From Desulfobacterales bacterium (GTDB lineage: Bacteria; Desulfobacterota; Desulfobacteria; Desulfobacterales; UBA5852), in NCBI GenBank assembly GCA_963674755.2, contig CAXXVS010000002.1, forward strand, positions 64,001-128,000: DNA of 64,000 nucleotides, read 5' to 3'. Of this stretch, positions 1,577 through 19,395 are shown one piece after another. The notes below the pieces were generated by a model. That model was given only the letters and a program-made list of their open reading frames with translations. It did no database searches and was not told the DNA's origin. Position numbers and translations under genes: made by a program. How positions within the stretch are numbered: the stretch's first letter is position 1; each line of letters opens with the position of its first letter.

Positions 1577-1719
1577 CGACTTGGTAGCTGCTGAAATTCA
1601 CCATGTTTCACTCGCTTGGTCCAGTCTGTCAGCAATACAACCTTGACATAGTTGATGCCCAAATTCGTGCATGACTCGCACGTCATGTTGATACAGCAAT
1701 TCAATCATGTTCATCGTAT

Positions 1720-3117
1720 TTATTCTGATTTAGCATCAACTCGTTGTGCCTGCCACCTAGGAGCAAAGAGATCCCCTCGAAAACCTACCAGTTTTATTGT
1801 TCTATTCCAAAGAAATGTTTGAATGAAGATAGTCGTAACCACAGTTGCAACCGCAGCACCATTTGGTCCGTATAAAGGAATCAAGATGATATTTAAAATC
1901 GCGTTCAATATGGCTGAAAAACTGAGGGAAAAAGCGGTAGTTCTTTCGTTTCCACTCATATTGAGAAGGACGACTACGGCACCAACACCTGTATTGTACA
2001 GATATCCTACAGCGACAATCATTGCGACAGTATAAGCAGCGGCGAATTCTTCGCTAAACAAAATCGAGATTAGATTAGGTCCGGCGAGCCAGATCACGAT
2101 GAGCAGGGCCGCCGAAGGAAGAAACGATAATCGACAGGCCTTGACCATCAGTTCTTGAACCCGAGCCTTGTCGCCACTAGCGTAGAACCGTGCGATGCGC
2201 GGTGCGATCGAGGCATTAAGCAACGCCTGGGTCACCATCAGTAGCCCAGCAACCTTTGTTCCTACATCGTAGACAGCGACACTCGCAGAACCGGTAATTA
2301 GGCCAAGCATCGCGATATCGAGCCGGCTGTTAATCATGGCCGCGCCCGACTGCAGGGTCATGGGCCACAGGCTGTGGAGCCAAGCGCGCGTCTCGAACAA
2401 CGGGGACTGCGCGCCTTTAACGTCGATCGCTGTAAGACAGTGTGAAGCCATGGACCAGGAAAGTACTGTGGCCACCCCAGCGGCGATGACATGGAGCGTC
2501 ATCACTGTGCTCGAATTGAGGCCCAGAAGCATTGCCGCGCCGGCGACAAGCGCGAGAAACAGCAGCGGACGCGCAAAGGTGTCTGGAACATTGGCCAAAA
2601 CAACATTCTCGAAACCCGAGATGATCGCGCGATAGAGCGATAGCAGCCCAAGTAGGCAAAGCAAAACAAAAGCCGGAACGATGATACCAACCAACATCTT
2701 GGTCGGCCATCGGCCCATTGTGTCCAAAGCGATCCATGCCCCAAATCCAATAACTCCGATAGTAAGCGCGCCAAGACCCACAAATCGGAAACTCCACCGG
2801 ATGATCCCCTTGAGGTGCCGGGTATCTCCGTTACTACGATAGATGGCCACTTGTCGCATGACCAGGGTCGGCAATCCCATCTGTAGCGGCATGCCAAGAA
2901 TAAAGACCCAGCCGAGCGCGAAGGTGTAGACTCCATAACCCTCCGTGCCGAGCACCCGTGCCAGCAACACGGTGGATGCGAGGCCGATCGCCATACTGAT
3001 GGCACGCATACCGCCCATGCCCATGCCGCTGCGCAAGAGCCACGAGGTTTCTCCGTGCGAGTTACCAGTTTTCAGGAATGCGCCAATCATAGACAGCAAG
3101 TCCGCATTGCCAAACAC
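1720..3117 (-). CDS. wzx: Oligosaccharide flippase (Wzx/MurJ-like polysaccharide exporter)
   Basis: LARVLGTEGYGVY, RLDIAMLG and LNIILIPLYGPNGAAVAT motifs; many transmembrane segments. Confidence 0.85.
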   Translation of the reverse strand: MFGNADLLSMIGAFLKTGNSHGETSWLLRSGMGMGGMRAISMAIGLASTVLLARVLGTEGYGVYTFALGWVFILGMPLQMGLPTLVMRQVAIYRSNGDTRHLKGIIRWSFRFVGLGALTIGVIGFGAWIALDTMGRWPTKMLVGIIVPAFVLLCLLGLLSLYRAIISGFENVVLANVPDTFARPLLFLALVAGAAMLLGLNSSTVMTLHVIAAGVATVLSWSMASHCLTAIDVKGAQSPLFETRAWLHSLWPMTLQSGAAMINSRLDIAMLGLITGSASVAVYDVGTKVAGLLMVTQALLNASIAPRIARFYASGDKARVQELMVKACRLSFLPSAALLIVIWLAGPNLISILFSEEFAAAYTVAMIVAVGYLYNTGVGAVVVLLNMSGNERTTAFSLSFSAILNAILNIILIPLYGPNGAAVATVVTTIFIQTFLWNRTIKLVGFRGDLFAPRWQAQRVDAKSE

Positions 3118-3149
3118 AGGTTCGCAGTCACGTAGCGTTCCAAAACACT

Positions 3150-4286
3150 TTACCCACGAACTGCACCTAACTCAATAGACCCTGCAGTCGCCGATATTGA
3201 TCGCAATTCTCGGTATTTCGAAATCAACTGATCGGCCCTATGGTCATAGGAACAATCGGATAGCAGCATCCTCCGCCGTCCGGCTTCAGCAATGGACGCT
3301 CTTTCCTTATCGTGTAATAGGAAATACTGAATTTTGTTAATCATATCATCCTGATCGACGAAAAACGCACATTCCTCGCCATCGGCGAAATAATGCGTTG
3401 CAAGCTCATTTCGCTCGTGCAACATGAAACCGCCAGTCGCTGGAATCTCGAAAGTGCGCGCGGTGATGAGATCCCCCGCTGGCGCCCATGGCGTTCCCTC
3501 GAAAAGCAGACCAAGATTGATTTTCGCTCCCAGAATGGCCTTTGCATATTCCTGTCCCCAGACAGGGGTATCCTGGTAAACAGACCGAACTCGCGGGCGG
3601 GACCTGCTCCAGCCATTGGGACCCCAGATCTTCACGGAAATTTCCGGCAGCGCCTCCAACAAATGAGCAATTTCCCCTTCCTTCTTTCTCGAAATATTTC
3701 CAATGAAAACAACGTCACAACCGTAGCGCGAATGATCCAGTTCCGTCAGCGTGACAGGAACGTGCACCTCTGGATCGTAGGCGTGACTCACAAAGGTAAT
3801 ATTGGTATAAGCATATCGTTCCCGGAGAAAATCCATGTGCGCAGGCTTTGTCGTGAATACCCAATCATAAAGCGTGATCGCTTTGGCAGCTTGCCCATCG
3901 AAGCCCGTATCAGGATAAAAATTGATTGATACCGCTCCGCTTGCGCGCAGCGTCCGCAGTGTCTCTGGCGTAACGCTATCACCCTTAAATGCGAAGAAAA
4001 GGTCCGGTTCAAAGCCGCGCATGGCAGCAATCAGAGCGCGGTTATACTCGGTAATCATAGCGGGCGCCATGAGACGCCGCACGGCTCGCAACCAACGGGT
4101 CTCCCAACGTGGAAGGTGACTTTCCGGCGGCACAACAAGTACTGAATGACCGGCTCGCCTTAACGCACGGATAAAGCTGTAATCGTTCCCACCATGGCGG
4201 ATGTTACAAGCCGCAAGAATCCGTAAGGGTCCTATATTCGAGCACTCTTCGAGTACGTTGGCTTGTGTTGCTTTGCTTAGTTCCAT
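3150..4286 (-). CDS. Glycosyltransferase (CgeB / Glyco_trans_1_2-like)
   Basis: DVVFIG, AKINLG, RTFEIPATGGFML and IAEAGRRR motifs. Confidence 0.85.
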   Translation of the reverse strand: MELSKATQANVLEECSNIGPLRILAACNIRHGGNDYSFIRALRRAGHSVLVVPPESHLPRWETRWLRAVRRLMAPAMITEYNRALIAAMRGFEPDLFFAFKGDSVTPETLRTLRASGAVSINFYPDTGFDGQAAKAITLYDWVFTTKPAHMDFLRERYAYTNITFVSHAYDPEVHVPVTLTELDHSRYGCDVVFIGNISRKKEGEIAHLLEALPEISVKIWGPNGWSRSRPRVRSVYQDTPVWGQEYAKAILGAKINLGLLFEGTPWAPAGDLITARTFEIPATGGFMLHERNELATHYFADGEECAFFVDQDDMINKIQYFLLHDKERASIAEAGRRRMLLSDCSYDHRADQLISKYRELRSISATAGSIELGAVRG

Positions 4287-4864
4287 CCCACATGATCCAT
4301 GAGTGGCGATGCCTCACGAACGAAAACAAGATCCATTTGCGTCAGTGTTCTGTCGTAAGGCCTCTGGACGTAGCTATCAATGTCGTAGATGCAAAAGCCG
4401 AGACCACCGAGAAATGCGATGACTTCTTGAGCAAGTGGATTTCCTTCATAGATGCGTTGCGTAGAGACCTCCACAAGGATAATCGTAGTAAATTCAAGCG
4501 TGTGTCCTGCCCCCCCCCCCCCCCCCCCCCCCGCGCGCAGGACTTCGCGCTCATGGCCCTGCACGTCCAGCTTGAGAAGCACACACGGCACGTCAGAGAG
4601 CTCCGTAAGCACCTCACGTAGTACATCATCACATGTCCGAACAGGCACCATGACTGGAGAGCCAACAAACGTTGGACTTTTTAGAAAAACGGAAACCGGT
4701 CTTTTTCAGTCTCTCAACACAGAGTGCGGTTTTCAGCCCTTCACTGAGCAGAAGAGATGAAAAACAAGCAATAGTGAGGCATTCCTATATATCCAACTGT
4801 CGTATCCAAGTATGGCTCGAACCCAACCGCGCACGATTTCAGTGATGTTTATCTTCCGAATCAC
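4277..4864 (-). pseudogene. Disrupted FkbM-family methyltransferase
   Basis: The C-terminal part (4277-4651) has VRTCDDV, LLKLDVQGHEREVL, ILVEVS and QMDLVF. An SD (AAGGAG) plus GTG at 4864 opens a frame that stops at about 4733. The SAM-binding DVGAN-type segment is not found in any frame. A 23-nt G run (minus strand) lies at 4510-4532. Confidence 0.6.
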
Positions 4865-4894
4865 TCTATGCTCTTCTCCTTTAGAACACCATAT

Positions 4895-6163
4895 CTACCA
4901 TAGAGAGAACACGCTCATACCTCGCCCACGCTTGGTACAAGTATCAACGCAGACATGACGCCCATCATACGACCACTTTGGATGCAAGTCGGCACGATAA
5001 CCGGTCGCCCGTACCGCGGAATCACTCGCAATTATTACTTCATCCAGAGGCTTGCGCTGCTCGACATCAAACAGGTAGAGGCGACAATTGCCTTCCTCGT
5101 CGGGGTATGTGTCGTTGATGATTGTAGTTGTGCTTCCCGGGCAAAATGTCGGATGTCCGTCCTCCGGCAGGATACTACGGTCTATTCGGTCGCGATCTCC
5201 GGTTTGGTCTGTAAATGACTGAAAACAGTCGCCGGTCACCTTGCGGGAAATCGCACCTCCAGGCGGGAACAATTTATGGTAAAGGGGAAGAAGTGGCTTT
5301 ATAAGGTTTTTGGCAATAGTCTTTTGTCCACGCAGTTTATTGAGCGTGGTACTGGTCCCGCCGTATCCGAACACGGTTCGATCGTCCCGCCAGCAGTAAT
5401 GACTCATACGTCCACTGTCGTTCAGCATGAACAGATTACGACCATCCGTGTCGGCGGTCAGCATGCGCGCATAGATACCCCCATCGACATTTAGCCAGCG
5501 GTGCAGGAAGACGAAACGGGAGTTGGCAGGATTGATCATCATATGCTCGAGATAATGAACTCCCGCATACATCGAGCTGACTCGCCCAATTTTCATCACA
5601 TCGCCGATAGCGATAATGCGCTCGAACGAGCCGTCGGCAAGTGACATCCTCCAGATACCATCCTCGGGATCGAACGGCTTCTTTTTCTCCAGGCGCGGTG
5701 TGCCTTGATAGTTATATCCTGGGCGGTACCAGAATAACCGATCGTAGTCGATCGAGAGCGCGTACTGACCATCACTGGTGATGGTGTAGGCTGGCATGGG
5801 CAGTACGGTTTCAGCGCCTGTCGCAATATCAAGCACAATTGCTCGGTAGTGGCCATCGCGGATGTCATTGTAGAGGACCCGACTACTAAAATCCGGTCCG
5901 AGCCACTGCAGCATCGAACCTTGCTGCCAGTTCCAGGAGCGCGTTTCGGCAATCGGCGTGAAGTCTCGGCCACCTGGAAATTCGAAGTATCCGATCGCGA
6001 TTGCCTCTCCAGCCTCGGGCATGCGGTTGATGAACGGCGTACGTTGCGCAAGTAGACGGTTGTTGTCGGCATTCAGGGGCGATTTGTCGTAGTAGCCAAA
6101 AAAATAATCGCCATCAGGAGGAGTTTCGTAGATCTGGTTTAACGTAATTGGAGTAGCGCTCAT
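4895..6163 (-). CDS. Conserved beta-propeller protein of polysaccharide clusters (TolB/oligogalacturonate-lyase-like)
   Basis: YFFGYYDKSP, WNWQQGSMLQW, DGHPT and DLHPKWS motifs; 4-nt overlap with the upstream glycosyltransferase. Confidence 0.65.
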   Translation of the reverse strand: MSATPITLNQIYETPPDGDYFFGYYDKSPLNADNNRLLAQRTPFINRMPEAGEAIAIGYFEFPGGRDFTPIAETRSWNWQQGSMLQWLGPDFSSRVLYNDIRDGHYRAIVLDIATGAETVLPMPAYTITSDGQYALSIDYDRLFWYRPGYNYQGTPRLEKKKPFDPEDGIWRMSLADGSFERIIAIGDVMKIGRVSSMYAGVHYLEHMMINPANSRFVFLHRWLNVDGGIYARMLTADTDGRNLFMLNDSGRMSHYCWRDDRTVFGYGGTSTTLNKLRGQKTIAKNLIKPLLPLYHKLFPPGGAISRKVTGDCFQSFTDQTGDRDRIDRSILPEDGHPTFCPGSTTTIINDTYPDEEGNCRLYLFDVEQRKPLDEVIIASDSAVRATGYRADLHPKWSYDGRHVCVDTCTKRGRGMSVFSLW

Positions 6164-7428
6164 CGCAGTTGTCCGGTTTCTTGTCGACTATCGCGTCCCG
6201 CAGCCCCTTCAACGGCACGGCCATTCAGCGCGAACCTGCAAGCCTCTTCCAATCCTGATGCGTTGGCTGCAAAAGAAAAGCGTGCTACATGCTTGTGCGC
6301 TGCTGTGGCGATACGCTTCCTCAGTTCGGAATCTTTTAGGAGTTTTAAATGCCCGGCAACCGTATCGACGCCTCCAACAGGGACGCGAAAACCGGTTTCT
6401 CCCTCAATAACAAGATCTCGGGATGTCCCGATTATTTCTGACACGATGACAGCGTTTGAAAAATTCATCGCTTCGTTCAATGCTTTTGGCGATGGATCAT
6501 ATTCGGAAAGGAGACAAAAAATGTCTGAAATAGAGTAGTAACGGCTGATCTCGGATTGGTTGACGAATCCGAGATGCACAGTGTGGATTTCATGGGCTTT
6601 TGCGACCGAAAGTAATTCGTCGCGTTGAGGACCGTCCCCCATAATGAGAAATGTAAAGGATTTCGGTCCAGCCCTCCGAATTGCTTCGAGCACATCCCCG
6701 GGCCGTTTTCTGCCAGTCAGACGCCCACAAAAAAGCACAACCAGGTTGTCTTCCGGGATGCCGAGTTCTGCTTTGGTCTGCAATTTTTTTGGGCGGTAGA
6801 TATCGTCCTGGGTGCGGAAAAAATCGTTATCTACAGCACATAGAAAGGGAAAGAGTTGTTCTGCACAAAGACCATGGTGAATCAAGAATTCCTTATTGCC
6901 TGAGCAGGTGTACATTACGGCATCACACCTTCGTAAAAACGCTTTAACCATCGCATCCCGCATGAAGTTACGAACTGCACCCACAAGTTGACCAGGTTTG
7001 AGCGTTACCTCGCCGCGCCAAATGACTTTGATACCAAGGTGGCGCGCCGAAAAAAGCGCAATCCAAAAAGATAAAATCGAGTAACCCTGTATGAGGATCG
7101 CGTCAAATCGCCCACGCTTTAAAGCCGAGAATAGCCCAATGTTGATACGCGATCCGAAACCAGACTTATTGTTGAGGGCGTAGTTCGGTAGAAATTCATA
7201 GGCATGCCCGTCCAGCAACGGTATATCCCACTCGATTTTAGTTCCGAATTCTTTGTCGTAGACACCTTTAAGTCCGAGGGTGTCAAGATACAGCACTTTT
7301 CCGTCAAATGCCGGCAAACTGCAAATGTTACTGTACAACGGAGAGTGATACTGCACAGGGTGCATCGCAAGAATCGCCAAGCGAATGGGGCGAGCATCCT
7401 TTTCGTGCGCTATAGATTCATATGGCAA
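6160..7428 (-). CDS. GT4-family glycosyltransferase
   Basis: HPVQYHSP, VLFCGRL..RKRP, GDGP, GFVNQ and ALNEAM motifs. Confidence 0.9.
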   Translation of the reverse strand: MPYESIAHEKDARPIRLAILAMHPVQYHSPLYSNICSLPAFDGKVLYLDTLGLKGVYDKEFGTKIEWDIPLLDGHAYEFLPNYALNNKSGFGSRINIGLFSALKRGRFDAILIQGYSILSFWIALFSARHLGIKVIWRGEVTLKPGQLVGAVRNFMRDAMVKAFLRRCDAVMYTCSGNKEFLIHHGLCAEQLFPFLCAVDNDFFRTQDDIYRPKKLQTKAELGIPEDNLVVLFCGRLTGRKRPGDVLEAIRRAGPKSFTFLIMGDGPQRDELLSVAKAHEIHTVHLGFVNQSEISRYYSISDIFCLLSEYDPSPKALNEAMNFSNAVIVSEIIGTSRDLVIEGETGFRVPVGGVDTVAGHLKLLKDSELRKRIATAAHKHVARFSFAANASGLEEACRFALNGRAVEGAAGRDSRQETGQLR

Positions 7429-7547
7429 GAGAGACTTTTCCTATAGAAAAAGAATGCGGCATGATTGAGTTGGAGGCGCTTGCTCTTAACAGGTTCTTCA
7501 AGAAAAACGATTGAAAAACGGCCAGTCTGTCACACACAAGGATTTTC

Positions 7548-9422
7548 CTACCACTCACCGGTTCCTGCATAGTTCCAAACAGAGTAAGCCCACCGCCTCG
7601 CCCATCGGCACTTTGGCTTTGCAAGTTTTTCAATCGTCTTCCAGGCTTGGGAGCGCTCGTCGGATTTCAGCCATTCAGCGATTGGAGTCGAGAAGCCCGT
7701 CTTTGCCCGATTGGTTACAGGTGCTGGCAGGGGTTGCACCGGTGCCGATGCGAGGAGCGATTTCCCCTTATTCTGCGCAAAACCGGAGACAAGTGCGGGG
7801 GATGTCTCTTCGAGAAGTATCTTGTCTACGAGTGGCACCCTGACCTCGAGCGAATGGGCCATGCTCGCCCAATCCGAATCGCGAAGCAACTGGTTCCGCA
7901 TGTAGAGCTCCGCTTCGAGTGCCGCGACTTTGCCGAATGGCGAGCGCGGCCCATCGCTTAATAAATCGGAGATCAGAGCAATCGGTTGTAACTCCCGTAG
8001 GCCGGCGGCAACGAACTCGGGCTCTAAAATAGCGTCGAGTTCGTCCGGCATGAAGACCCCTCTACGTACAAGATAAGCACCGGGATAGGTGCCGCCGTAG
8101 GTAAGTAGAGCGGCGATCTTCGGGTCGATGGCCTCGCCACTCAGCCGCTGCGCTCCCATGATCAGAGGCGCCAGCCAGGAGGTTCCGTCGTGGCGTATAC
8201 CCATTCGACCTAGAATGCTGACCGATCGTGGGACGTCGCGAAACGCTGGATAGCCGCCGAACAGTTCATCGCCACCCAGTCCGGAAATCGCCACCTTGAG
8301 TCCGAGTTCGTGTGCGGCCTTGCTGACGAACCAGGTGTTAAGGCCGTCGATGGTCGGCTGATCCATCGCGTCGAGTATTTTTGACAAATCTTCAAGGAAT
8401 TCTTTCCGAGAAACGCCTCTGCTCGTGTGACTGGCACCGTAACGACGGGCGATTTCCGCTGCCAGTGGTGCCTCGTCGTCATGTCTACCCTGAAATTCCT
8501 CGAAGTAGAGCGTTACGGTGTTGATTTCATGATCAGTCGCATCGCGCATCAAGCCAAGCAGGGCGCCAGAATCGATCCCCGCCGATAGAAACAGCCCCAC
8601 GGGGACGTCGGCCACCAGGTGATGGCGGACGCTGTCGGCGAGGCTGCGGCGGACCGTCTCGGTTACAAGCTCATCGTCCGGCTTTTCCCCTTTAGAAGCT
8701 GCTTCATTCGACCGAATTTCGGCCTGGGCAATTAAGTGACTGATCGAGCAATAGGGCATAATGCGCGGGTTGTCATTTGCCTCGACGATCATTGTTGTTC
8801 CTGCGGGCAATGCACGGATGGCGCGGCACCAGGTGAATGGCTCTGGTACCGAGCCGAACAAATAGAAACCGACGACGCCCGCCGGATCCACATCCTTCGC
8901 GATTTCTCCTCCGGCCAACAGCGACTTGACTTGGGATGCGAAGGTGATGCCTTTCGCGCTGTCGACGTAGTAGAGTGGCTTGATGCCGTAAGGATCGCGC
9001 GCGAGCATTAAGCGGCGTTTTTGGCGCTCGAATATCGCGAAGGCGAACATGCCTCGCAATCGCTCGACCATTGCGGGTCCATAAGCGTCGTAGAGATGCA
9101 ACAGGACTTCCGTGTCTGAGGTTGTTCTGAAGACATACCCACGCGCAATAAGGCCATCTCGGAGGATTTGGTAGTTATAGATTTCTCCATTGAATGTGAC
9201 GACCAGTCGCCCATCCGGCGTTTGCATCGGCTGTGATGCGCGCTCGGAAACATCGATGATCGAAAGCCGCCGATGCACAAAGCCGACGGACGCTTCCGTC
9301 TCTTCGATCCAAAGTCCATCACCGTCGGGCCCACGGCGGGACATGTGTTGCGAAATTGCCGCGAGTTCGATTTCGTTGACGCGTCCGCCCGCGTATCGGA
9401 ATTGACCACCGATCCCGCACAT
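7548..9422 (-). CDS. asnB: Asparagine synthase (glutamine-hydrolysing)-like amidotransferase, probably for sugar amidation
   Basis: N-terminal MCGIGG with catalytic Cys2; RGPD, HRRLSIID, FNGEIYN, LSAGIDS, SGLGGDELFGGY, SLEVRVP. Confidence 0.92.
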   Translation of the reverse strand: MCGIGGQFRYAGGRVNEIELAAISQHMSRRGPDGDGLWIEETEASVGFVHRRLSIIDVSERASQPMQTPDGRLVVTFNGEIYNYQILRDGLIARGYVFRTTSDTEVLLHLYDAYGPAMVERLRGMFAFAIFERQKRRLMLARDPYGIKPLYYVDSAKGITFASQVKSLLAGGEIAKDVDPAGVVGFYLFGSVPEPFTWCRAIRALPAGTTMIVEANDNPRIMPYCSISHLIAQAEIRSNEAASKGEKPDDELVTETVRRSLADSVRHHLVADVPVGLFLSAGIDSGALLGLMRDATDHEINTVTLYFEEFQGRHDDEAPLAAEIARRYGASHTSRGVSRKEFLEDLSKILDAMDQPTIDGLNTWFVSKAAHELGLKVAISGLGGDELFGGYPAFRDVPRSVSILGRMGIRHDGTSWLAPLIMGAQRLSGEAIDPKIAALLTYGGTYPGAYLVRRGVFMPDELDAILEPEFVAAGLRELQPIALISDLLSDGPRSPFGKVAALEAELYMRNQLLRDSDWASMAHSLEVRVPLVDKILLEETSPALVSGFAQNKGKSLLASAPVQPLPAPVTNRAKTGFSTPIAEWLKSDERSQAWKTIEKLAKPKCRWARRWAYSVWNYAGTGEW

Positions 9423-10510
9423 CAGCCAAGCACCTCAATCAATCGATTCTTGAATGCGCTGTACCGGAATTCCGCTTGCCAGCGTTCCTGGCCAGCGCGG
9501 CCCATATTGCTTGAGCGATCCGGGTTTCCCAGCAGGTCGATCAAGCGCTCTTCCAAAGCGTCTTTGCTGTTGAGGTCGATGTTGTAACCAGTGACTCCAT
9601 CAAGATTAACCTCTTGTCCGGCGTCGTGAACCGATGCAATAACGGGTATTCCATGACGCATTGCTTCGATATACACCAGCCCAAAACCTTCACCACGCGA
9701 GGGCATTGCAAAAACGTGTGCCTGTGACCATACTTGCGCTAACTCGGCCTCGCTCAAAAAGCCTTTGACATCGATATTCGTTGAGGCACTCGAATTTGCC
9801 GCATGCGTGATGATTGAGTCTTTCCCTGTTCCACTGCCGACAATGACGAGTCGGGCGTCTGGAACAGCAGAAACGATTTTTGGCCAGACCTCGATGATTT
9901 CGCGATGTCCCTTATACAGGTTACCGTCATCCATGCGCGCAACGATCAACGCGGTTGGTGGTCCGCTAAACGTTGCGGGCATTGAGGATGGTTTGTCCTC
10001 CTCGGTCCCCAACTGGCAGACTCGAGCCTGTTGTAGCGTACCATGCTTTTCTTCGAACCTGGCAAGCGTGTAGCTCGAGTTTGACAACACAAGGCCGGCG
10101 CGCCGTAGTACGTTTTTACGCTCCGTAGAAAGATCGCCCCAAACCTCAATTCCATGTATCCACACAACGTATGACCGTTTAAAACCCGGCAATCGCGGAT
10201 GGGCGCGTGCTGTGCCCAGAAAGTCGTAGATAAAACCGCCATGGGTTATTGCCGCCGCATGGCAATGTGCCAAAAAACGTACTTTACTTCCGTATGCCCT
10301 ACTCGCGACTCTACCAGCTACTTCAACCGGCGCCTCGTCGGATAAGGACAGAAGTGAAACATCCACCCCTGTCTCGATTAGCGCGCGCGCTGTGTTTCTC
10401 GCCACGCGGGCGATGCCACCCAGACCGGGGGTAAACAGTGCCGCAGCAACATGGATTTTCTGCGTGAGTGGTACGAATGCAGGGACGCTATTCACATTTT
10501 CACATTCCAT
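9422..10510 (-). CDS. GT4-family glycosyltransferase
   Basis: GGIARV, HGIEVW, YKGH and EGFGLVYIEAM motifs; TGATG overlap with asnB. Confidence 0.9.
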   Translation of the reverse strand: MECENVNSVPAFVPLTQKIHVAAALFTPGLGGIARVARNTARALIETGVDVSLLSLSDEAPVEVAGRVASRAYGSKVRFLAHCHAAAITHGGFIYDFLGTARAHPRLPGFKRSYVVWIHGIEVWGDLSTERKNVLRRAGLVLSNSSYTLARFEEKHGTLQQARVCQLGTEEDKPSSMPATFSGPPTALIVARMDDGNLYKGHREIIEVWPKIVSAVPDARLVIVGSGTGKDSIITHAANSSASTNIDVKGFLSEAELAQVWSQAHVFAMPSRGEGFGLVYIEAMRHGIPVIASVHDAGQEVNLDGVTGYNIDLNSKDALEERLIDLLGNPDRSSNMGRAGQERWQAEFRYSAFKNRLIEVLG

Positions 10511-11369
10511 CTATCCATTCAGTTATTTCATGTTGCACTTCCGGCAGCAGGGAATAGTTTCTTGGATAGCAGAGACTGTATGCCGGCAGGTGTTGCGTCA
10601 TATCTGCCATGCTGTCGAACAGGGCTATATTTTTTTTCTGATCCGTTACATCGAGTTGGAATGATTGTTTTATCAGGTTCATCAAGGCGGTTTGTTTGCT
10701 GATCGGCGAAATGTTTATTTGGCTGTTGTTCTTGCAAGCATCTCGATCTTCAAGAATGAAGACAGCCTTTAGCGGAAGCACCGTATTGATGGTCTCGCTG
10801 CCGGAGGTGAGCCGTTTTTTGGATGAATAGTATGCCATCGGCGCTAGTGCGGGGGCGGTTGCAAAAAGCGCTTCCAAGGAATCCGGCCAAAGCCTTGGGC
10901 CTGCGTCGAATGGCGTCAGCGTCACATGCCGGTTTTCCAGGTTGAGCTGGATGCAGTCGTCGGCCAGCAAGGGCGTTCCCTGCTGATGAAAGGCAGCGGC
11001 CAGGGTCGATTTGCCGTAGCCTGTCTCACCGATGAAGGCCACGGCTTGATCATCGATGGACACGGCGCTGGCGTGGACCATGATATGGCCCTGGTGGCTC
11101 AAGATCCGCGGCAGGACCTGGTCCCCAAAATAGTGGTCGATGGTGTCCTGGGTCGCATCGGACGCCGGATGGCACACAATATCCAGGCCGTTTTCTGAAA
11201 CGAGAAAGTCGGTCTGGTCCGGGAACCTCAGGAGATAGCCGAAGGCGGAGCGGGCCAGGGAGAGGGTGATTTCGCCATCGGGCAATTTCCAGTGGTGGAT
11301 CCAGCGATGGTTCCCATCGCCGGATAATCTTGTATTTTTAATGTTGAATTTTAAATTGGGGGGAATCAA
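10500..11369 (-). CDS. HPr-kinase-like lasso peptide kinase (PadeK/ThcoK/PsmK type)
   Basis: HASAV...FIGETGYGKSTLAA (Walker A) and LLADDCI; located next to the precursors. The TTG start is uncertain. Confidence 0.8.
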   Translation of the reverse strand: MIPPNLKFNIKNTRLSGDGNHRWIHHWKLPDGEITLSLARSAFGYLLRFPDQTDFLVSENGLDIVCHPASDATQDTIDHYFGDQVLPRILSHQGHIMVHASAVSIDDQAVAFIGETGYGKSTLAAAFHQQGTPLLADDCIQLNLENRHVTLTPFDAGPRLWPDSLEALFATAPALAPMAYYSSKKRLTSGSETINTVLPLKAVFILEDRDACKNNSQINISPISKQTALMNLIKQSFQLDVTDQKKNIALFDSMADMTQHLPAYSLCYPRNYSLLPEVQHEITEWIDGM

Positions 11370-11552
11370 TAGAAGCTATATTTGAATACAGTATGTTGAA
11401 TTCTGAATTGCCGGAAAAAACCCTTAATAAGTTTGAGTTATGGGTATATAAATTCATACTTTATGAAGCGGTGTTAGTGGTATTAATTTACTGCGTTCCC
11501 CCGAGTGGTGATGCTATCGCGGTCAGCGAACTTTTTTGGGATACGACAACGA

Positions 11553-11717
11553 TCAGGAACGTCTACCCGGATCATCCCGATGCCACCAACCTTCACGCCA
11601 TCCCCTTGATCCAGCGGCGGTCAATTCGCGGATGTTGCCATACTCTCTTAGAGATGGGCTTTGGTACGTTTTCTTAAGTTCCTCGTTTGACAATATTTTT
11701 CCTTCGGCGATTTTCAT
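11553..11717 (-). CDS. Lasso peptide precursor A2 (54 aa): MKIAEGKILSNEELKKTYQSPSLREYGNIRELTA|AGSRGWREGWWHRDDPGRRS
   Basis: Manual translation. Leader has YxxPxL (YQSPSL), the conserved G, and Thr at -2. Core has Glu8 and a C-terminal Ser. An alternative in-frame ATG lies at 11729. Confidence 0.9.
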   Translation of the reverse strand: MKIAEGKILSNEELKKTYQSPSLREYGNIRELTAAGSRGWREGWWHRDDPGRRS

Positions 11718-11803
11718 TTTTAAACCCATCTTTTATTGTTGGATACGGGGTTATGAGTTTTGAACGTGGAGTGATGTGTTTGAGATTGCCAGCAAGTTTT
11801 AGC

Positions 11804-11959
11804 TCAGGGGTACCGATGCCTTTGCTGTGGCCAGTTTTCTGGTTTTCGGCCTGAGCCGCCGGCGGTCAGGTCGCAGATGCGACCGTATTCCCTTAGCTCC
11901 GGCGGTCGGTAGTTCTTTTTAGGGCGGGTTTTCTTATTGGCGGTTATGTTGTCGGTCAT
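11804..11959 (-). CDS. Lasso peptide precursor A1 (51 aa): MTDNITANKKTRPKKNYRPPELREYGRICDLTA|GGSGRKPENWPQQRHRYP
   Basis: Manual translation. Leader has YRPPEL, the conserved G, and Thr at -2. Core has Gly1 and Glu8. Homologous to A2 (LREYGxIxxLTA). Confidence 0.9.
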   Translation of the reverse strand: MTDNITANKKTRPKKNYRPPELREYGRICDLTAGGSGRKPENWPQQRHRYP

Positions 11960-12112
11960 ATGCACAAATCGTTCTGAGGCTGCGGACGTCGCGTTATTAT
12001 CTTCCGTTATGATGGCGAATGATTACTAATTATCTTTTTGCCATTCGTAGTACCTAAGCAGGCGTTGTGTCAAATGATTACTTTTTCGGGCATCGGGCAT
12101 CAAATGCGTCAT

Positions 12113-14032
12113 TCAGCCCTCATAATTGTGGTCCTTCCATGCGATAAGCGCTGCGGCTTCCCACACGTATTGTCGATCGTTGTCCGAGGCGGCGCCGTTT
12201 TGGAAATTTTGGTTGGCCTGGCGGATTTTGGGTTCATCCACGTAGTCGCTGACTTCGGAAAGATCTTGCGTGATGGTCCGGTTCAGGTGGGTCTTGTGGC
12301 TGTTCATCAGGGCGGTGATGAATTGCCAACCCAAATGGTTTTTGTCGGTGCGAAAACAGACGTCCCGCGGCAGGTAGCGGGACATGGATCGGCGCAGGAG
12401 GTATTTCGACCACCCCCGGCGGTCTTTCTGGTCCAGGGGCAGGGAGAGGTAAAATTCCACCAAACGCCGGTCGGTGTATGGGCAGCGAGGTTCGATGCCG
12501 AACCGGGCCGCGACGCGGTCGTAGCGTTCCAGGCCCACGGTCAAGTAAGGATGGAGCAACTTTTGCGCGTGGGCCTGGATCGGGTCTTTGACCAGGCCGA
12601 TGGGGTGATGGCGCCGCAGCTGGTGGAGGCGGTCTTCGAGGCCGATCCGTTGGGCGAACTCCGGACGGATGGCCGACTCTTTCATGGCCTCACAGTAGTC
12701 GTTGCCGGCCGGCCAAAAACGGCGTTTGACCTTGCGCAGGCGGTCCGTGACAAATGCGGCCCGGGCATTGGCGTGGAGCAGGTGCCAGGGGGAATCATAC
12801 GCCCCGGCCGTGGTGTCTTTCCGGAAGGCGTCGGCCAGCACCGCGAGCCAGCGGCCCTGCCTGAGAAGGTAGGCCAAGTAGTCGGTGCCGTAAGAGCAAA
12901 GGTTGTCCCCGGCCACGCCGTCAAGCAGGGTTTTGCAGCCCTGCGCCCGGGCGGCACCGTACAGGGCGCCCGGCAGGACCATGAAGATGTCGAAAGGATT
13001 GTCCGTCGGCGCCACGGCCTGTCCGAGGTCCTCGAAAAAGGGGCCGGGTTGATTTACGGCAACCAGGTGCGATGTCTGGGTGCCGCTGTCGATGACGCGC
13101 CGGATGAAATGGGTCTCCGGGCAGGTGATGCGATCCGGCGTCACGGCGGAAAAGGTTTGCAGGCGCGTCCGGCCGGTCTGGTTTAGGATGTTGCGGCCAA
13201 TGGCCACCACCGCCGAGGAATCCATGCCGCCACTGAGCATGGAGGCCGGAGGGGTGGGGCTGCGCAGGCGGCAGCGAACGGCCTGGGTGAAAATTTCCAG
13301 AAAGGCTTCGGTGTATTGGGCGTCGGACGGCAAGAACGTTTTTTTAGTGACGTCGGGTTCCCAATAAGTCTGGGTGCGCAGGCCGTTGCGGTCCACGGTG
13401 ATCCAGCAGGCCGGCGGCAGACGATGGATGTTGGCGGAAAAGGTGCTCGTTTTGTCGATGCCCTCCAACTCGGAGACCAGAAAATCGGCGATGCGCCCTT
13501 CGTTGATCCGCAAGGGTACGGCGGGCAGGGCCCGCAAGGCGTTTTCTTCCGAGGCCAGGGCAAAGAGCCTGTTGGGCTGGTGGTGGTAATAAATCGGTTT
13601 GACCCCCAGGGCGTCCCGGGCGGCAAAGAGGCGCTGTTGGGTGCCGTCCCAGATGACAAAGGCGAAATCACCGATGAGTCTCAAGGGGGCGGCCGTGCCC
13701 CAGCACCGGTAGGCCTCGATGATCAGTTCGCCATCGCCCATGGGGGCCGCAGCGCCGGCGGCCAGGCCGAGGTTGCGAATCAATTCGTCGCGGTTGTCGA
13801 TGCGGGCATCGGCGATGATGGTCATCGGGGATAGCGAGTGGGTCAGGGGCATGTGTTCGGTGAGGGATTCCGGGGTCGTAAAAAGGGCGCCCCAGGCCAG
13901 GCCCACGGGCCCGCTGATCCAGGCGGCGCTGCCGTCCGGTCCTCGATGCGCCTGCATGTCGAGCATGAGCTGGAGATCGGCGGTCGATGCGGGCTTGTCG
14001 TTCAGGTGATATATGCCGGCGATGGCTGCCAT
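12113..14032 (-). CDS. Lasso peptide cyclase (C protein, asparagine-synthase fold)
   Basis: Starts MAAIAG and so lacks the glutaminase Cys; HRGPDG, DARIDNR, GDFAF, LSGGMDSS, DGVAGD, EPRCPYTDRRLVE. The track start at 14041 lies inside a repeat end, so 14032 is preferred. Confidence 0.9.
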   Translation of the reverse strand: MAAIAGIYHLNDKPASTADLQLMLDMQAHRGPDGSAAWISGPVGLAWGALFTTPESLTEHMPLTHSLSPMTIIADARIDNRDELIRNLGLAAGAAAPMGDGELIIEAYRCWGTAAPLRLIGDFAFVIWDGTQQRLFAARDALGVKPIYYHHQPNRLFALASEENALRALPAVPLRINEGRIADFLVSELEGIDKTSTFSANIHRLPPACWITVDRNGLRTQTYWEPDVTKKTFLPSDAQYTEAFLEIFTQAVRCRLRSPTPPASMLSGGMDSSAVVAIGRNILNQTGRTRLQTFSAVTPDRITCPETHFIRRVIDSGTQTSHLVAVNQPGPFFEDLGQAVAPTDNPFDIFMVLPGALYGAARAQGCKTLLDGVAGDNLCSYGTDYLAYLLRQGRWLAVLADAFRKDTTAGAYDSPWHLLHANARAAFVTDRLRKVKRRFWPAGNDYCEAMKESAIRPEFAQRIGLEDRLHQLRRHHPIGLVKDPIQAHAQKLLHPYLTVGLERYDRVAARFGIEPRCPYTDRRLVEFYLSLPLDQKDRRGWSKYLLRRSMSRYLPRDVCFRTDKNHLGWQFITALMNSHKTHLNRTITQDLSEVSDYVDEPKIRQANQNFQNGAASDNDRQYVWEAAALIAWKDHNYEG

Positions 14033-14033
14033 A

Positions 14034-14224
14034 GTGTCCATCCAGAAAGGGCATCTTTTAGCCCCTGGCGGCGTTCTCGCCTCCTGTCGGTCCTCGGCGT
14101 AGCCAAGCTACGCCTGTGGGCACCCACCGTTGAAGAATCAATCAGATGGGAAGTCCCGCTCAGCGGGACGCCAGTCGGCTGCGGCCTTGCCAGGAACCAA
14201 AATCTACCCTTTCTGGACGGACAC
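14034..14224. repeat. MITE/REPIN-like element, family A, copy 1
   Basis: Terminal inverted repeats gtgtccatccagaaaggg / ccctttctggacggacac (1 mismatch); internal hairpin gcgtagccaagctacgc. Confidence 0.85.
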
Positions 14225-14228
14225 TTTT

Positions 14229-14471
14229 GCTTATCCAAAAAAAGCATCTTTTAGCCCCTGGCGGCGTTCTCGCTTCCTGTCGGTCCTCGGCGTAGCCAAG
14301 CTACGCCTGTGGGCACCCACCGTTGAAGAATCAATCAGATGGGAAGTCCCGCTCAGCGGGACGCCTGTCGGCTGCGGTTTGTTGAACACCGATGTTTTTG
14401 AAGATCAGACGTGAAATCCCGCGCTGTGCTGCGGGACCGGGAACCAAAACCTACCATCTCCGGACGGACAC
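14229..14471. repeat. MITE/REPIN-like element, family A, copy 2 (tandem with copy 1, with an extra insert)
   Basis: About 130 nt nearly identical to copy 1; ends ggacggacac-TA; overlaps the 3' end of the B2 gene. Confidence 0.85.
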
Positions 14472-14955
14472 TATTCAAAAGCAAAGCGAATTTTATCCGG
14501 ACGTCCGGGTTCTCATGCAAGGGTTGGCCCTGGTATTCGACCCAGGCGTGGGCTTGAATGGTGCGGCTGTTTTTTTGGACCCCGATGCAAATGTCGCTGT
14601 CGATGCACTGACGGCGCAGCAGGCTCCAGAGGGTCAGGGAACGGGGCAGGCAGTTGGCGCGGCCGAGCCGGGTTTGAGCGGCCCGGTGGACCATTTGGGC
14701 TGCGGTCTGGGCGATATTGTCCGCGTTGGCTTGTCTTCCCCAAGGTGCTGTCTGTCGGCCGGTGACCCACGTTAGCAGATGGTGGAGCCTTTGGTAGCCC
14801 AGGGTTTTCAAACCGATCCTTACCAGGGGAAGGCTTACAAGAGCCTGGAGGAAGAACCGTTTTTCCTGGCAGGAAAGGGATTGGAATAATGACGGCCCTC
14901 TAAAAAGTCCGACCCGCCGCGATAAAGGCGGATGAATATCTGCGTTACGCTTCAT
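14353..14955 (-). CDS. Lasso peptide leader peptidase B2 (transglutaminase-like)
   Basis: NCLPRSL (Cys), CIGV and AHAWVE (His) motifs. Both termini lie within repeat elements. Confidence 0.88.
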   Translation of the reverse strand: MKRNADIHPPLSRRVGLFRGPSLFQSLSCQEKRFFLQALVSLPLVRIGLKTLGYQRLHHLLTWVTGRQTAPWGRQANADNIAQTAAQMVHRAAQTRLGRANCLPRSLTLWSLLRRQCIDSDICIGVQKNSRTIQAHAWVEYQGQPLHENPDVRIKFALLLNSVRPEMVGFGSRSRSTARDFTSDLQKHRCSTNRSRQASR

Positions 14956-15040
14956 TTCTCGCCACTGCGGCCTACGCGAAGTGCGCCTCTTTCCTCAAGA
15001 TTCGCAAGTCTTGTGGTCTCAAACGTCATACGAAACCGTC
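14891..15040. repeat. Degenerate palindromic repeat element (gacgg...ccgtc ends)
   Basis: Short inverted ends; contains ctgcgtt...ctcg and cctcaagattcgc..gtcttg, similar to cctcaggattcgccagccttg near 44550. Confidence 0.55.
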
Positions 15041-15065
15041 TGGATTTCGACTGGTCAGGAAGCCA

Positions 15066-15332
15066 TCAGGATGACCTGGCCTGTATGAGGCCTTTTTCCA
15101 GCAGCTTTGCGATGAGCTGCTCCAGGTCTGATTTCAGGGTGTCGGGGTCCACGTCGTATTGTTCAAGCAGCGATGCGAAGGCCGCTTCGACGGTCTGGCC
15201 GGAGGTGAGGGCATTGATCATGCGGGTGCCGACTTCGTCCAGACCGAAGTACATTTCCGAATCGAGATTGAGAAGGACCGCTTCCCCGTCCAACTCCCTG
15301 ATTTTTACGTAGTCCGGAAGATCGTATTTCAT
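15066..15332 (-). CDS. RiPP recognition element, lasso B1 / PqqD family (88 aa)
   Basis: MKYDLPDYVKIRELDGEAVLLNLDSEMYFGLDEVGTRM...YDVDPDTLKSDL...LLEKGLI is a typical PqqD pattern. Confidence 0.9.
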   Translation of the reverse strand: MKYDLPDYVKIRELDGEAVLLNLDSEMYFGLDEVGTRMINALTSGQTVEAAFASLLEQYDVDPDTLKSDLEQLIAKLLEKGLIQARSS

Positions 15333-15358
15333 GTCAGAGATCAATTGGTTTTTCGCTT

Positions 15359-16573
15359 CTAAGAAGTTTCCCAGGATGAAGGGGTGAAAGTCGTTTGCTT
15401 TGCATCCCTTCGTTGTTCGATCCAGTGGCGGAATTCCTTGGCCTGATCCGCCCAGCGATGGATATAGCAGGGTACCAGCGAACGATGAGCGGCGATGTTG
15501 TAACGGATGCGCATGTAGGCCGGGGGCGGCACGGCGGTCTGCAGGATCATGCGCAACGAATCGCTGAGGGAAAGGTTCGTCATGCTGCGGCGGGCGTTTT
15601 CCCATCGCGCCCCCTTATGATTCAGGCGGGTGATCAGGGTGAGGTCTTCATCGGCTGGGCGGCGATCGTGCAAGGCCTGGAAAACCGCATCCGGTAGGGC
15701 CGAGTCCAACTCGGGGGTGTCAAAGGACTGCTTGACCCGCCGCAGGGTGCGTTCTGCGGCATAGGTCCAACCGAAAGCCACGGCCTGGGTGACAAGCAGG
15801 TCCCAGTCGATGGCCTCCCGGGTAATGGATAGATACACGTCCATGGTGTGCAGGTGGGTGATTTCCGGCTCGCCATGCTGGAGTTGGGCATGGGCCATGA
15901 GGTAGAGCAAATGGGCTTCCGGTTTCAGCGTGAGGAAGCGGCCGGCCTCGATGTCGATTTCGCGGGTTTGATGATGGAACCAGGTCATTTTGGGTTCGGT
16001 CATCCAGGTATGGGGGGCGCTGAGCAGCCAGTAGTGGAGCTCCAGTGCCACGGCCCGGCCCATGCCGCCTTCGAGGACAAAGTGATGGCTGTTGTCGATG
16101 CCCTTGGCGTTCGTCTGGCTCCACAGGTGGCCGGGATCGTCTATTTTTTGAAAACCGCTGCATTCCAGGGTATGCAATGCTGGCTGCCGAAGATGGTAGG
16201 GAATCAGCACGTCGAGGTCGGCCATGGGGCGCGTCCAGGGTCTGGGGTAGACGGTGTTGGCCAGGATGCTGCCCTTGAGCCACAGGGCCGGGATGTGGGC
16301 GTCGCGGAGTGCTATATTGACCTGCTTCAGGGTGTCTTCATACATTTCATACAGGGCGGCGGTTTGCAGGGCAGCGTTTTTTACCGGCTGCCACTGTTCG
16401 CTGTCCAGTTCGACGGCCGGGACGGAGGCGTTAGCCTGTTTGATGACCCAGTAAAGCATGGGGGCCAGATCGTGGGCCAGGGCGACCTTAATGATCGGTG
16501 GCCAGTGGCCGGCCGGAATAGATGGCGGGTCGACTTGTTGGGTCAGCAGGGCGGTTAGGGTTTTTAAAACCAT
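15359..16573 (-). CDS. Nucleotidyltransferase (NTP_transf_5 family, PadeN/PsmN-like)
   Basis: LKGSILANTVYPRPWTRPMADLDVL and LELHYWL motifs. Confidence 0.85.
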   Translation of the reverse strand: MVLKTLTALLTQQVDPPSIPAGHWPPIIKVALAHDLAPMLYWVIKQANASVPAVELDSEQWQPVKNAALQTAALYEMYEDTLKQVNIALRDAHIPALWLKGSILANTVYPRPWTRPMADLDVLIPYHLRQPALHTLECSGFQKIDDPGHLWSQTNAKGIDNSHHFVLEGGMGRAVALELHYWLLSAPHTWMTEPKMTWFHHQTREIDIEAGRFLTLKPEAHLLYLMAHAQLQHGEPEITHLHTMDVYLSITREAIDWDLLVTQAVAFGWTYAAERTLRRVKQSFDTPELDSALPDAVFQALHDRRPADEDLTLITRLNHKGARWENARRSMTNLSLSDSLRMILQTAVPPPAYMRIRYNIAAHRSLVPCYIHRWADQAKEFRHWIEQRRDAKQTTFTPSSWETS

Positions 16574-16613
16574 GTTGGGGGGACTATGAATCCGTTCTTC
16601 TCAATTTTAGATA

Positions 16614-16790
16614 GTGCCTATCCATAAATGAAATGCATTTTTTGGCCCCTGCCGGTGTTCTCTGGGGCTGCGCCTGTGGGCGCCCGTCGGCTGAGGTTTG
16701 TTGAACACGGATGTGACCAAAAATCAGACGTGAAATCCCGCGTTCCGCGGTGGGACCGGAAGCCAGAATCTATCATCGCTGGATCGGCAC
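16614..16790. repeat. MITE/REPIN-like element, family A, copy 3 (degenerate)
   Basis: TA-gtgcc...ggcac-TA; shares the gttgaacac..atcagacgtgaaatcccgcg insert with copy 2; supplies the ABC gene's stop codon. Confidence 0.8.
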
Positions 16791-18650
16791 TATATAGTTG
16801 GCTGGGTTTGTCGATGCTGTTGATTCTTGGTTGTATTGGGCTCGCCAGGACCAGGCGTAGCGGCCATCGAGGGATATCAATTGTTCGTGGGTGCCGGACT
16901 CGGTTATGCGGCCGGCGCCCATGACGTGGATGATGTCGGCGTGCATGGCGGTGGTGAAGCTGTGTGTGATCACCAGGGCGGTTCGCCCCCGGGTAAGGGT
17001 GCGGAATCGGGCCAGCCAGTCAGCCTGGGCCCAGGAATCCATGAAACTGGTCGGCTCGTCCAGGACGATGATGGGCGATCGGCGCAGGAAGGCCCGGGCC
17101 AGGGCTATCCGCCGCCATTCGCCGGCGCTCAGGTCGGTGCCGCCGTCGAACCATTTCCCCAAACGCGTGTTGCCGCCGTCAGGCAGGCGTTGAACGATCT
17201 CTTCCGCGCCTGCGGCGGCAATCGCGTCGTTGAGGTCGTGCGGGCCGGGGACCGTCTGCACGCTGCCCATGGCGACGTTTTCAACTAAAGAAGCGTTGAA
17301 GCGAATAGGCTCTTGGAAGAGGACGCTTATCTGGCGCCGCAGGTCGGCGATAGCGAATTCCCGGATGTCGATGTCGTTGATGCGAATGGTCCCGGACTGG
17401 GGATCGTAGAACCGGCAGAGCAGTTTGAGCAAGGTGGTTTTGCCGGCGCCGTTGGGCCCCACGATGGCGGCTGTCTGGCCGGCGTGGATATGCAGATCCA
17501 GCTCTTCCAGTGCCGGGCGGTCGGTGCCGGGGTATCGAAAGCTTATATGGTCGAAACGAATGGCGTAGCGCTGTCGGTGGGGCATCGGTGCCGGTCGGGC
17601 AGGGTCCTTCATTCCAGGTGTCATATCCAGAAATTCGAAGAGGTTCCCCAGGAACAGGCTGTTGGAATAGAGTTCCCCCACATTGGCAAGCAGGGTCCGC
17701 ATGAGGCGCTGGCCCTGGCTGAAGGCCTGGTAGATAAGGGCCAAGTCGCCGAGGGTGTGTCGGCCGCGGGCGGTTTGCCATACCATCCAGATCATGGCCA
17801 GGCCGGTGATCAGCATAGCGGCCAGGGCGGCGCCGAATTCGGCCAGGCTGCGCCGTTTGATTAATTGGGTGAGCCGGTTGCGCAAGGTGCGGCGTACGTT
17901 CTGATAAAGGGATTTGAAACGGTCACCCAGGTCGAACAGGCGCAGTTCGGCGGCGGTTTCCCGGTCGGTGAGCAGCCAGTCATAGTACCAGCCCCGACGG
18001 CGATGGGCGGTGGATTCCAGCTGCCATTGGTGCATGAGCAGGCGGTGGTGAAGGACCACGTAAAGGGCCGGCAGGGTGCTGATAATGAGTGCGATGGGCA
18101 GCAGCCAGCCGTAGGAAAGCAGCACCCCGGCCATGGCTATGGCCGTAATGGCGGTTTGCAGCAGGCTGCCGAGGTTTTCCAGCAGGGCCACAGGGCGGTG
18201 GCCGGCGTCGTTGCGGGCCCGGTGCAGATGGTCGAAAAAATCAGGGGATTCGTAAAACGCCATGTCCACAGCCATCGATTGTTCGTGGACCAGACCGGCG
18301 ATGTAATCTTTGACCCGCTCGCCTTGAACGGTCCGCACCCAGTTGGTAAAGCCGCGCAGCAATTCGCCGAACAGCATGAGCCCGGCCATGAGCGCCACCC
18401 AGATCAGTACCGGTGTCGCCGCGGCGATGCTGACATCATTGCCGATCAGGTCGACCAGGCCGTTGACCAGAGCCCGGGTCAAGTAGACCGTGGCAACAGG
18501 CAAAAGGCCCTGGAGGACGAGCAACGTGATCCAGCCCAGCGTCCATTTCCCCGTTGCGGCACGGACCAGGGCGAAGGTGCGGGGGAGGAAGCGGAGTTGG
18601 TTGCGGAAGCGGCTCAGCCTGTCTTTTATTATGGGCAGGAGAGGGGGCAA
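16773..18650 (-). CDS. ABC exporter, fused permease and ATPase (lasso D type)
   Basis: Six-TM-like N-terminal domain; GPNGAGKTT, LSAGEWRR signature, IIVLDEPT. Confidence 0.88.
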   Translation of the reverse strand: MPPLLPIIKDRLSRFRNQLRFLPRTFALVRAATGKWTLGWITLLVLQGLLPVATVYLTRALVNGLVDLIGNDVSIAAATPVLIWVALMAGLMLFGELLRGFTNWVRTVQGERVKDYIAGLVHEQSMAVDMAFYESPDFFDHLHRARNDAGHRPVALLENLGSLLQTAITAIAMAGVLLSYGWLLPIALIISTLPALYVVLHHRLLMHQWQLESTAHRRRGWYYDWLLTDRETAAELRLFDLGDRFKSLYQNVRRTLRNRLTQLIKRRSLAEFGAALAAMLITGLAMIWMVWQTARGRHTLGDLALIYQAFSQGQRLMRTLLANVGELYSNSLFLGNLFEFLDMTPGMKDPARPAPMPHRQRYAIRFDHISFRYPGTDRPALEELDLHIHAGQTAAIVGPNGAGKTTLLKLLCRFYDPQSGTIRINDIDIREFAIADLRRQISVLFQEPIRFNASLVENVAMGSVQTVPGPHDLNDAIAAAGAEEIVQRLPDGGNTRLGKWFDGGTDLSAGEWRRIALARAFLRRSPIIVLDEPTSFMDSWAQADWLARFRTLTRGRTALVITHSFTTAMHADIIHVMGAGRITESGTHEQLISLDGRYAWSWRAQYNQESTASTNPANYIVPIQR

Positions 18651-18715
18651 GAGTTTATGTTTTAGGGTTTTAGGGAAAGTGAGGGGACGTCTATGTTTTT
18701 CAATCGTCTCCGCCC

Positions 18716-18808
18716 GATAGCGGCGTTGTGCTCAAAATGTAATCCTCGGAATATCAACCATATGCCTCTTGATCTCGACCCAATTGGCCAATTTCTGGAT
18801 CGGCACTA
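18716..18808. repeat. Truncated palindromic repeat element
   Basis: gcggcgtt...cctcgg..atat..atatgcct..cttgatctc core as at 44069-44210; ends ggatcggcacTA like copy 3 of family A. Confidence 0.55.
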
Positions 18809-19288: not shown

Positions 19289-19395
19289 TCCTTACCCCCT
19301 GACAAATAATCCCGGAAGGAGCTGAATCGACTGGGTCCTGCCTGCGCGGGGATAGGATGACAGAACGACGCCTTCAGAGACTTGCTGCGCATTCA

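Follow-up and report, generated by a model that had tools for sequence, protein, structure and literature searches.

We sought to determine whether the 743-bp gap between a lasso cyclase gene and an HprK-like kinase gene in a Desulfobacterales genome encodes lasso peptide precursors, and which residue of such precursors the kinase would modify. The gap lies in a 64,000-nt stretch of DNA (the window). A preliminary description had reported two overlooked minus-strand ORFs here, and both were present as quoted, flanked by the cyclase and the kinase. Precursor A1 (11804..11959, minus strand) has a 33-aa leader and an 18-aa core (GGSGRKPENWPQQRHRYP), with a predicted Gly1-Glu8 ring and a predicted phosphorylation site at Ser3. 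Precursor A2 (11553..11717, minus strand) has a 34-aa leader and a 20-aa core (AGSRGWREGWWHRDDPGRRS), with a predicted Ala1-Glu8 ring and, again, a predicted site at Ser3; its C-terminal Ser is a possible second site. A1 comprises 51 aa from its ATG start (53 aa from a GTG at 11965), and A2 comprises 54 aa (58 aa from an alternative ATG at 11729). The two are 48% identical, mainly in the leader, and have in common the pattern Y-x-x-P-x-L-R-E-Y-G-x-I-x-x-L-T-A. The YxxPxL motif that had been described as shared falls in the same register in both, at positions -17/-14/-12, and Tyr-17, Pro-14, Leu-12, Thr-2 and core Glu8 are alike in A1 and A2. Ser3 is the sole Ser/Thr of the A1 core, the last residue of which is Pro. 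Neither core contains Cys, as in class II. The predicted monoisotopic masses are 2131.057 for A1 (2211.024 with one phosphate) and 2405.139 for A2 (2485.105), each phosphate adding 79.966 Da.

The two ORFs could be chance open frames. They are short, neither had a match in a Pfam search, and A1 scored 16.3 bits against the NCBI lasso leader model NF033521, just under its cut-off of 19; A2 passed the same model with 21.1 bits. A promoter scan of positions 11300-12200 gave 0 sites and no canonical promoter, its single terminator-like match was at chance level, and Rfam gave no match over positions 9000-20000. Against chance frames, a strict precursor pattern, devised after the ORFs were known, matched twice in the gap, while two matches occurred in 0/5000 dinucleotide shuffles of the gap and one match in 4/5000. 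In the whole 6.7-Mb genome the pattern had 4 matches, A1 and A2 among them. Furthermore, orthologues keep the reading frame, and most related loci have precursors at the same position. We regard chance frames as scarcely credible, and A1 and A2 as very probably real lasso precursors, judging from their sequences and those of their relatives. Three start variants of A1/A2 were absent among about 15 billion predicted proteins (the GTG start of A1 lay outside this look-up), so that the description of the ORFs as unannotated is plausible; the cyclase from the same contig was present in that set as a called gene of 639 aa. One sample, which may be the very source of the assembly, is represented by two public runs, and their contigs cover the region with 0 differences. 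In the ESM Atlas, A1 was closest to unnamed clusters at 0.90 and to lasso families at 0.84-0.85, which we take as a lead only.

The genes around the precursors, all on the minus strand, run in the order ABC exporter, nucleotidyltransferase, B1, B2, cyclase, A1, A2 and HprK-like kinase, and all eight cluster ORFs are open. The exporter D (16773..18650) is MsbA-like and matched PF00005 and PF00664. The nucleotidyltransferase N (15359..16573) is of the NTP_transf_5 type, carries a D-x-D motif and matched PF14907 with 116.5 bits. B1 (15066..15350, start approximate) is a stand-alone RRE with the PqqD fold (PF05402, 61.7 bits), and its best PDB match was TbiB1 (E 6e-10). The leader peptidase B2 (14353..14955) matched NF033537 with 90.2 bits (cut-off 33) as well as PF13471. 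The lasso cyclase C, a macrolactam synthetase (12113..14041, start probably at 14032), matched NF033535 with 581.5 bits (cut-off 525) and has no N-terminal Cys, in contrast to the AsnB-type gene at 7548-9422. The peptide kinase K (10500..11369), which lies 183 AT-rich bases away from A2, has the motif H99-G114-G117-G119-K120-S121-D137-D138, and in the ESM Atlas it fell into generic HPr-kinase-like clusters. Judged by sequence, the cluster shows all the features expected of class II lasso clusters, with ring closure and threading as predictions. The earlier reading of the ORFs as lasso precursors, with its proposed cleavage site and 1-8 rings, is thus backed by motif register, family matches, gene context and orthologues, and holds as a prediction.

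Relatives of the precursors were sought with a profile among 1.84 billion representatives, which gave 4122 matches at E <= 0.001; the best 150 were inspected. Three of these best 150 are close to A1 or A2, and all three are known from short contigs. The metagenomic P0134 is 74% identical to A1 overall and shares 15/18 core residues, including Arg14, Arg16 and Tyr17. P0136 has an A2-type leader, with 15/17 of the last residues the same and a common upstream G-L-K-M-K; its 20-residue core is unlike that of A2 and ends in Thr. In P0197 the leader is of the A1 type, and the core is yet another, third variant. Gly2, Ser3 and Glu8 are kept in all five peptides, while the tails vary. The preliminary description had made its reading depend on conservation of the reading frame in relatives, and these orthologous precursors do keep it. 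Among 147 parsed profile matches, Ser/Thr3 occurred in 143 and Glu8 in 144, counts that are circular, the residues being built into the profile, and that lend no support. When the A1/A2 alignment served as query in a word-index search, no candidate came back; this blank result reflects low sensitivity, as the later profile search gave many matches. A tblastn search of A1 against plasmids had no match. When a profile of 29 precursors, A1 and A2 included, was compared with the PDB, TbiA-alpha (E 1e-4) and TbiA-beta (E 4e-4) led, and the two TbiA leaders together with the TfuA leader ranked first of 9 matches. TbiB1 with TbiA-alpha/beta (PDB 5V1V, 5V1U) is the closest solved system in a comparison of leaders and B1 only, and there, as here, one B1 goes with two leader variants. 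We propose that A1 is the conserved, family-typical product and A2 an extra copy in which the tail may vary freely. A single 946-nt contig from one run (X3), at a depth of 2.7, matches positions 12069-11603 with 15 differences and then diverges just past Ser3-Arg4 of A2; it weakly hints at the same tail variability, possibly in a strain whose A2 tail has been exchanged. Separately, three profile matches (P0127, P0150, P0230) carry two to five lasso-type leader motifs per chain.

Which residue does the kinase modify? The shared Gly2-Ser3 of the preliminary description was confirmed in both cores; its likely reason was overlooked there, the kinase being taken as a mere flank. In the study of Duan et al. 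(2023, PMC10368454), the bsf cluster of Bradymonas sediminis FA350 consists of BsfA/B1/B2/C/D/K/N, and BsfK phosphorylates Ser3 of the precursor, accepts Thr3 and is strongly boosted by B1. The two clusters share the seven gene types A, B1, B2, C, D, K and N, YxxPxL at -17 to -12, a 1-8 ring with Ser3 and an identical spacing of the kinase motif (H148-G163-G166-G168-K169-S170-D186-D187 in BsfK), the kinases being compared by spacing alone. As all lasso kinases have this motif, the spacing says nothing on the phosphorylation site. The bsf cluster differs in having Ile(-2), Asp8 and Thr2, where A1 and A2 have Thr(-2), Glu8 and Gly2, and the window cluster has two precursors with basic, aromatic tails. 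The Ile/Val(-2) that marks the Bradymonadales group is replaced by Thr-2 in both A1 and A2, and for this reason the cluster, by analogy, would work in a bsf-like manner but outside the Ile(-2) group. The earlier statement that Thr(-2) is needed for B2 cleavage holds as the usual rule (146/147 parsed profile matches have it), but not as an absolute one, since BsfA has Ile there (PMC10368454).

We gathered 159 loci with relatives of the cyclase, most of which have precursor-like ORFs, usually between C and K. The cyclase tree was built from the 144 loci whose cyclase ORF was >=500 aa long, the remaining 15 being left out; a usable kinase was available for 105. We called "near" the 40 loci outside a large distal cyclase clade; these form a grade under midpoint rooting and were selected with their cores visible. 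They include loci from Acidobacteriota, Chloroflexota, Pseudomonadota, Cyanobacteriota, Rhodothermota and a Desulfocapsa MAG. In the kinase tree, which served as a separate check, the window kinase and all 23 near kinases formed one clade (FastTree, SH-like 99), with 0 of the other 82 inside, and the catalytic His, Lys and both Asp were intact in 23/23. The 34 unique near cores had Gly2 in 33, Ser/Thr3 in 32, Glu8 in 30, a penultimate Arg/Lys in 25 and a C-terminal Ser in 4, whereas the 106 other cores had Ser/Thr3 in 14, Glu8 in 4 and a C-terminal Ser in 41; a pattern set the limits of each core, and loci that are related do not count as independent. The counter-example is genome G232: its kinase match, at 275 bits, is the best among 400 genomes of the class and its gene set is the same, but the canonical cut gives a core with Gly3/Ser5.

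Phosphorylation of Ser3 is favored because of the conservation of Ser/Thr3 across the near clade, the BsfK precedent and the position of Ser3 as the only Ser/Thr of A1. We infer a two-precursor class II cluster of bsf type in which K phosphorylates the ring residue Ser3, with a probability of about 0.62 based on clade conservation and precedent. Several observations speak against this assignment. A common descent of K and BsfK is putative, the G232 core has Gly3/Ser5, A2 ends in Ser and P0136 in Thr, and a repeat breaks the B2-C junction. In addition, expression in five heterologous hosts never yielded a detectable mature Bsf lasso (PMC10368454), and no modification by LppN could be detected in a heterologous host (PMC13381572). 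Under the Ser3 assignment, the proposed heterologous expression of A+B1+B2+C would miss the likely real products, because Ser3 is the most likely target of the kinase.

The main competing site is the C terminus. In paeninodin-type systems the kinases PadeK, ThcoK and SyanK modify a C-terminal Ser (PMC9266682, PMC8498205), as does PsmK in pseudomycoidin, where PsmN is required for the addition of one or two hexoses to the C-terminal phosphate (PMC6993621). These systems also have, as here, a split B1/B2, an HprK-like kinase with His-Lys-Asp-Asp and an ABC exporter; the psm cluster likewise has a nucleotidyltransferase, and N carries the same Pfam-type annotation as PsmN and BsfN. The paeninodin-type kinase motif is intact in K (H99, K120, D137, D138). 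By this logic K would act only on a C-terminal Ser, so that Ser20 of A2 would be phosphorylated and perhaps glycosylated, while A1 would be left unmodified; the terminal Ser of A2 and the terminal Thr of its orthologue P0136 are in its favor. However, the C-terminal Ser conserved in these systems is replaced by Pro in A1, and this hallmark is not general in the family either (Ser in A2, Thr in P0136, Ser in 4/34 clade cores against 32/34 with Ser/Thr3). Most near loci encode one precursor that lacks a C-terminal Ser and yet have an intact kinase. We consider a purely C-terminal target unlikely. Ordinary unmodified lassos, with K and N serving the adjacent polysaccharide operon, would account for the 183 AT-rich bases between K and A2, the overlap of K with the first glycosyltransferase gene by 11 nt, and the fusion in G232 of the N domain to a Polysacc_synt_2 sugar dehydratase. 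K nevertheless adjoins C and A also in the 6/16 long loci that have no polysaccharide gene within about 8 kb, the kinase tree follows core type, and the conservation of Ser/Thr3 would be left unexplained; we judge service to the polysaccharide operon very unlikely.

The products may instead be phosphorylated but linear or branched-cyclic, that is, unthreaded, or the cluster may be a silent, decaying import. The failure to observe a mature Bsf lasso agrees with this, as does unmodified pseudomycoidin, which PMC6993621 reports as not threaded. So do the repeats at three junctions, one of which replaces the stop of B2, and the finding that 0/12 same-genus genomes have a cyclase over the cut-off. 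Yet the eight ORFs are open, C scores above its curated cut-off, Glu8 is present in 30/34 family cores, and the plug-type residues of A1 are kept in P0134. Unthreaded products or decay are an unlikely outcome, and Ser3 phosphorylation of a threaded lasso remains our preferred reading.

The pathway for Ser3 phosphorylation would proceed as follows. B1, assigned by family, would bind the YxxPxL leader of A1 or A2, in which the motif is present. K, aided by B1, would then phosphorylate Ser3 on the linear precursor, before cleavage. Next, B2 would cleave after Thr-Ala, and C would couple Gly1 or Ala1 to Glu8 and thread the tail, for which the bulky Arg14, Arg16 and Tyr17 are the likely plugs in A1. 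N might, most tentatively of all the steps, cap the phosphate with a sugar in a PsmN-like manner. Finally, D would export the products, which by prediction are most likely exported, surface-associated or antibacterial cationic peptides.

A second S3-acting system lends itself to comparison. In the work of Popov et al. (2026, PMC13381572), LppK modifies S3 on linear peptides, and deletion of lppN led to no detectable change. As described there, the Lpp system (LppA/K/B/S/D/N) resembles the window cluster in its RRE, its S3-acting HprK-like kinase, its NTP transferase, its MsbA-like exporter and its often glycosyltransferase-rich loci. It differs in lacking a cyclase and in using a signal-peptidase-like protease, whereas in the window cluster B2 and C are present and Glu8 is the predicted acceptor.

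The cluster stands at the head of a co-directional surface-polysaccharide operon, which forms its context. The operon starts within the window (629..10510, minus strand) with two GT4 genes, an amidotransferase, a flippase and a sulfotransferase; beyond the left end of the window it extends for at least another 19 kb, as far as Wzy and Wzc. A carbamoyltransferase and several methyltransferases were also seen in it (window 629-10510 and L213, G000:C2:44001-64000). An ORF of 124 aa at 4277-4651 covers only the C-terminal half of an FkbM-type methyltransferase domain, includes a run of Gly codons and is possibly broken or mis-assembled. The last 11 nt of K, its stop codon included, also belong to the beginning of the following GT4 gene. 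Polysaccharide genes lie within about 8 kb in 10/16 long loci (15 near loci and that of G232), a count with no genome-wide baseline behind it, and such proximity may reflect only an insertion hot spot. In the single genome G232, a 1061-aa ORF (L212:315-3497) fuses a Polysacc_synt_2 nucleotide-sugar dehydratase to NTP_transf_5, upstream of ABC-B1-B2-C-A-K and of Wza/Wzc/Wzy genes. Glycosyltransferase-rich settings have already been described for related clusters (PMC13381572). The K/GT4 overlap, the 10/16 long loci and the G232 fusion together suggest a speculative extension, which we think doubtful: phospho-Ser3 would be a sugar attachment point to which N links a glycan made by the operon, giving a phosphoglycosylated lasso tied to surface polysaccharide. 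If this were true, A1 and A2 would belong to a wide x-G-[S/T]-x4-E8...[K/R]-R-P subfamily found in several phyla, and most loci of this subfamily add an arginine-methyltransferase-like enzyme that is lacking here.

That enzyme, a bacterial methyltransferase closest to the eukaryotic protein arginine methyltransferases PRMT6/PRMT2/CARM1 (E 4e-23), occurs near the kinase gene in L023-L030, L032, L034, L035, L036, L079, L103, L145 and L166. It is present in 16/20 near loci with room for it after K and in 3/70 others, and it is absent from the genome of the window. As an explanation of the penultimate Arg it is not supported, with Arg found in 11/16 loci with the enzyme and 2/4 without. A literature search for lasso clusters paired with an arginine methyltransferase gave one unrelated-looking listing.

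The distribution of the cluster is patchy. Among 60 relatives, 12 of the same genus and several of them incomplete, none had a cyclase over the cut-off; of the same-family genomes, again with several incomplete, 0/12 had the precursor and 0/7 the kinase. The kinase profile matched 21/400 other genomes of the class at E <= 1e-20, only G232 exceeding 200 bits. A recent horizontal gain of the cluster would fit this pattern. Between B2 and C lie two tandem copies (14028..14475) of a genome-wide hairpin repeat of about 200 nt, which supplies the last ~40 codons and the stop of B2, a tail that matches many other places in the genome. The B2-C spacing is 30-130 bp in most relatives, compared with the repeat-interrupted junction here. 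The repeat has inverted ends and a long hairpin fold (-98 to -119 kcal/mol), with further copies at 16611-16794 and about 18790-18810, about 100 genome matches of >=60 nt and no Rfam match. No autonomous transposon bearing the same ends turned up in a search, and the repeat looks like a MITE/REP-type element.

Earlier work has already described clusters of this gene composition, as well as clusters that encode multiple precursors; A1 and A2 are new peptides from a known type of pathway and not a new class of system. The earlier author's failure to recognize either core as a characterized lasso peptide was borne out by the literature searched: four core strings gave no match, in a search whose scope excluded most subscription journals and mining-study supplements. 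The same literature contained no prior report on the A1/A2 peptides and no experimental study of their subfamily. Within it, the precursor BsfA is the only instance in which phosphorylation in a lasso ring has been shown; for the N enzyme, one system revealed a role, whereas another showed no effect. The cluster combines a canonical Thr(-2) leader with a built-in control pair, A1 with Ser3 alone and A2 with Ser3 and a C-terminal Ser, and it is of value because it would allow kinase site choice and the formation of a ring-phosphorylated lasso to be tested cleanly. It also offers two new cationic, Trp/Arg-rich lasso scaffolds from a sulfate-reducing anaerobe that bears DsrA (above cut-off in the host genome).

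Other loci in the survey showed further arrangements. L062, where B1, B2, C, A and K make up a lasso cluster, lies on a contig labeled as a euryarchaeal MAG. At L021 (genome G023), a cluster of N, ABC, K, C, B2 and B1 genes includes a lasso-like precursor (L021:8883-9029) that begins its core with Tyr1, contains Cys-Cys and ends in a strongly acidic tail. A 25-row cyclase clade, mostly cyanobacterial (members include L039, L043, L045-L048, L052, L055, L060, L061 and L067), has long cores of 30-45 aa, up to four precursor copies and a kinase clade of its own, and both Ser/Thr3 and a C-terminal Ser are missing from most of its cores.
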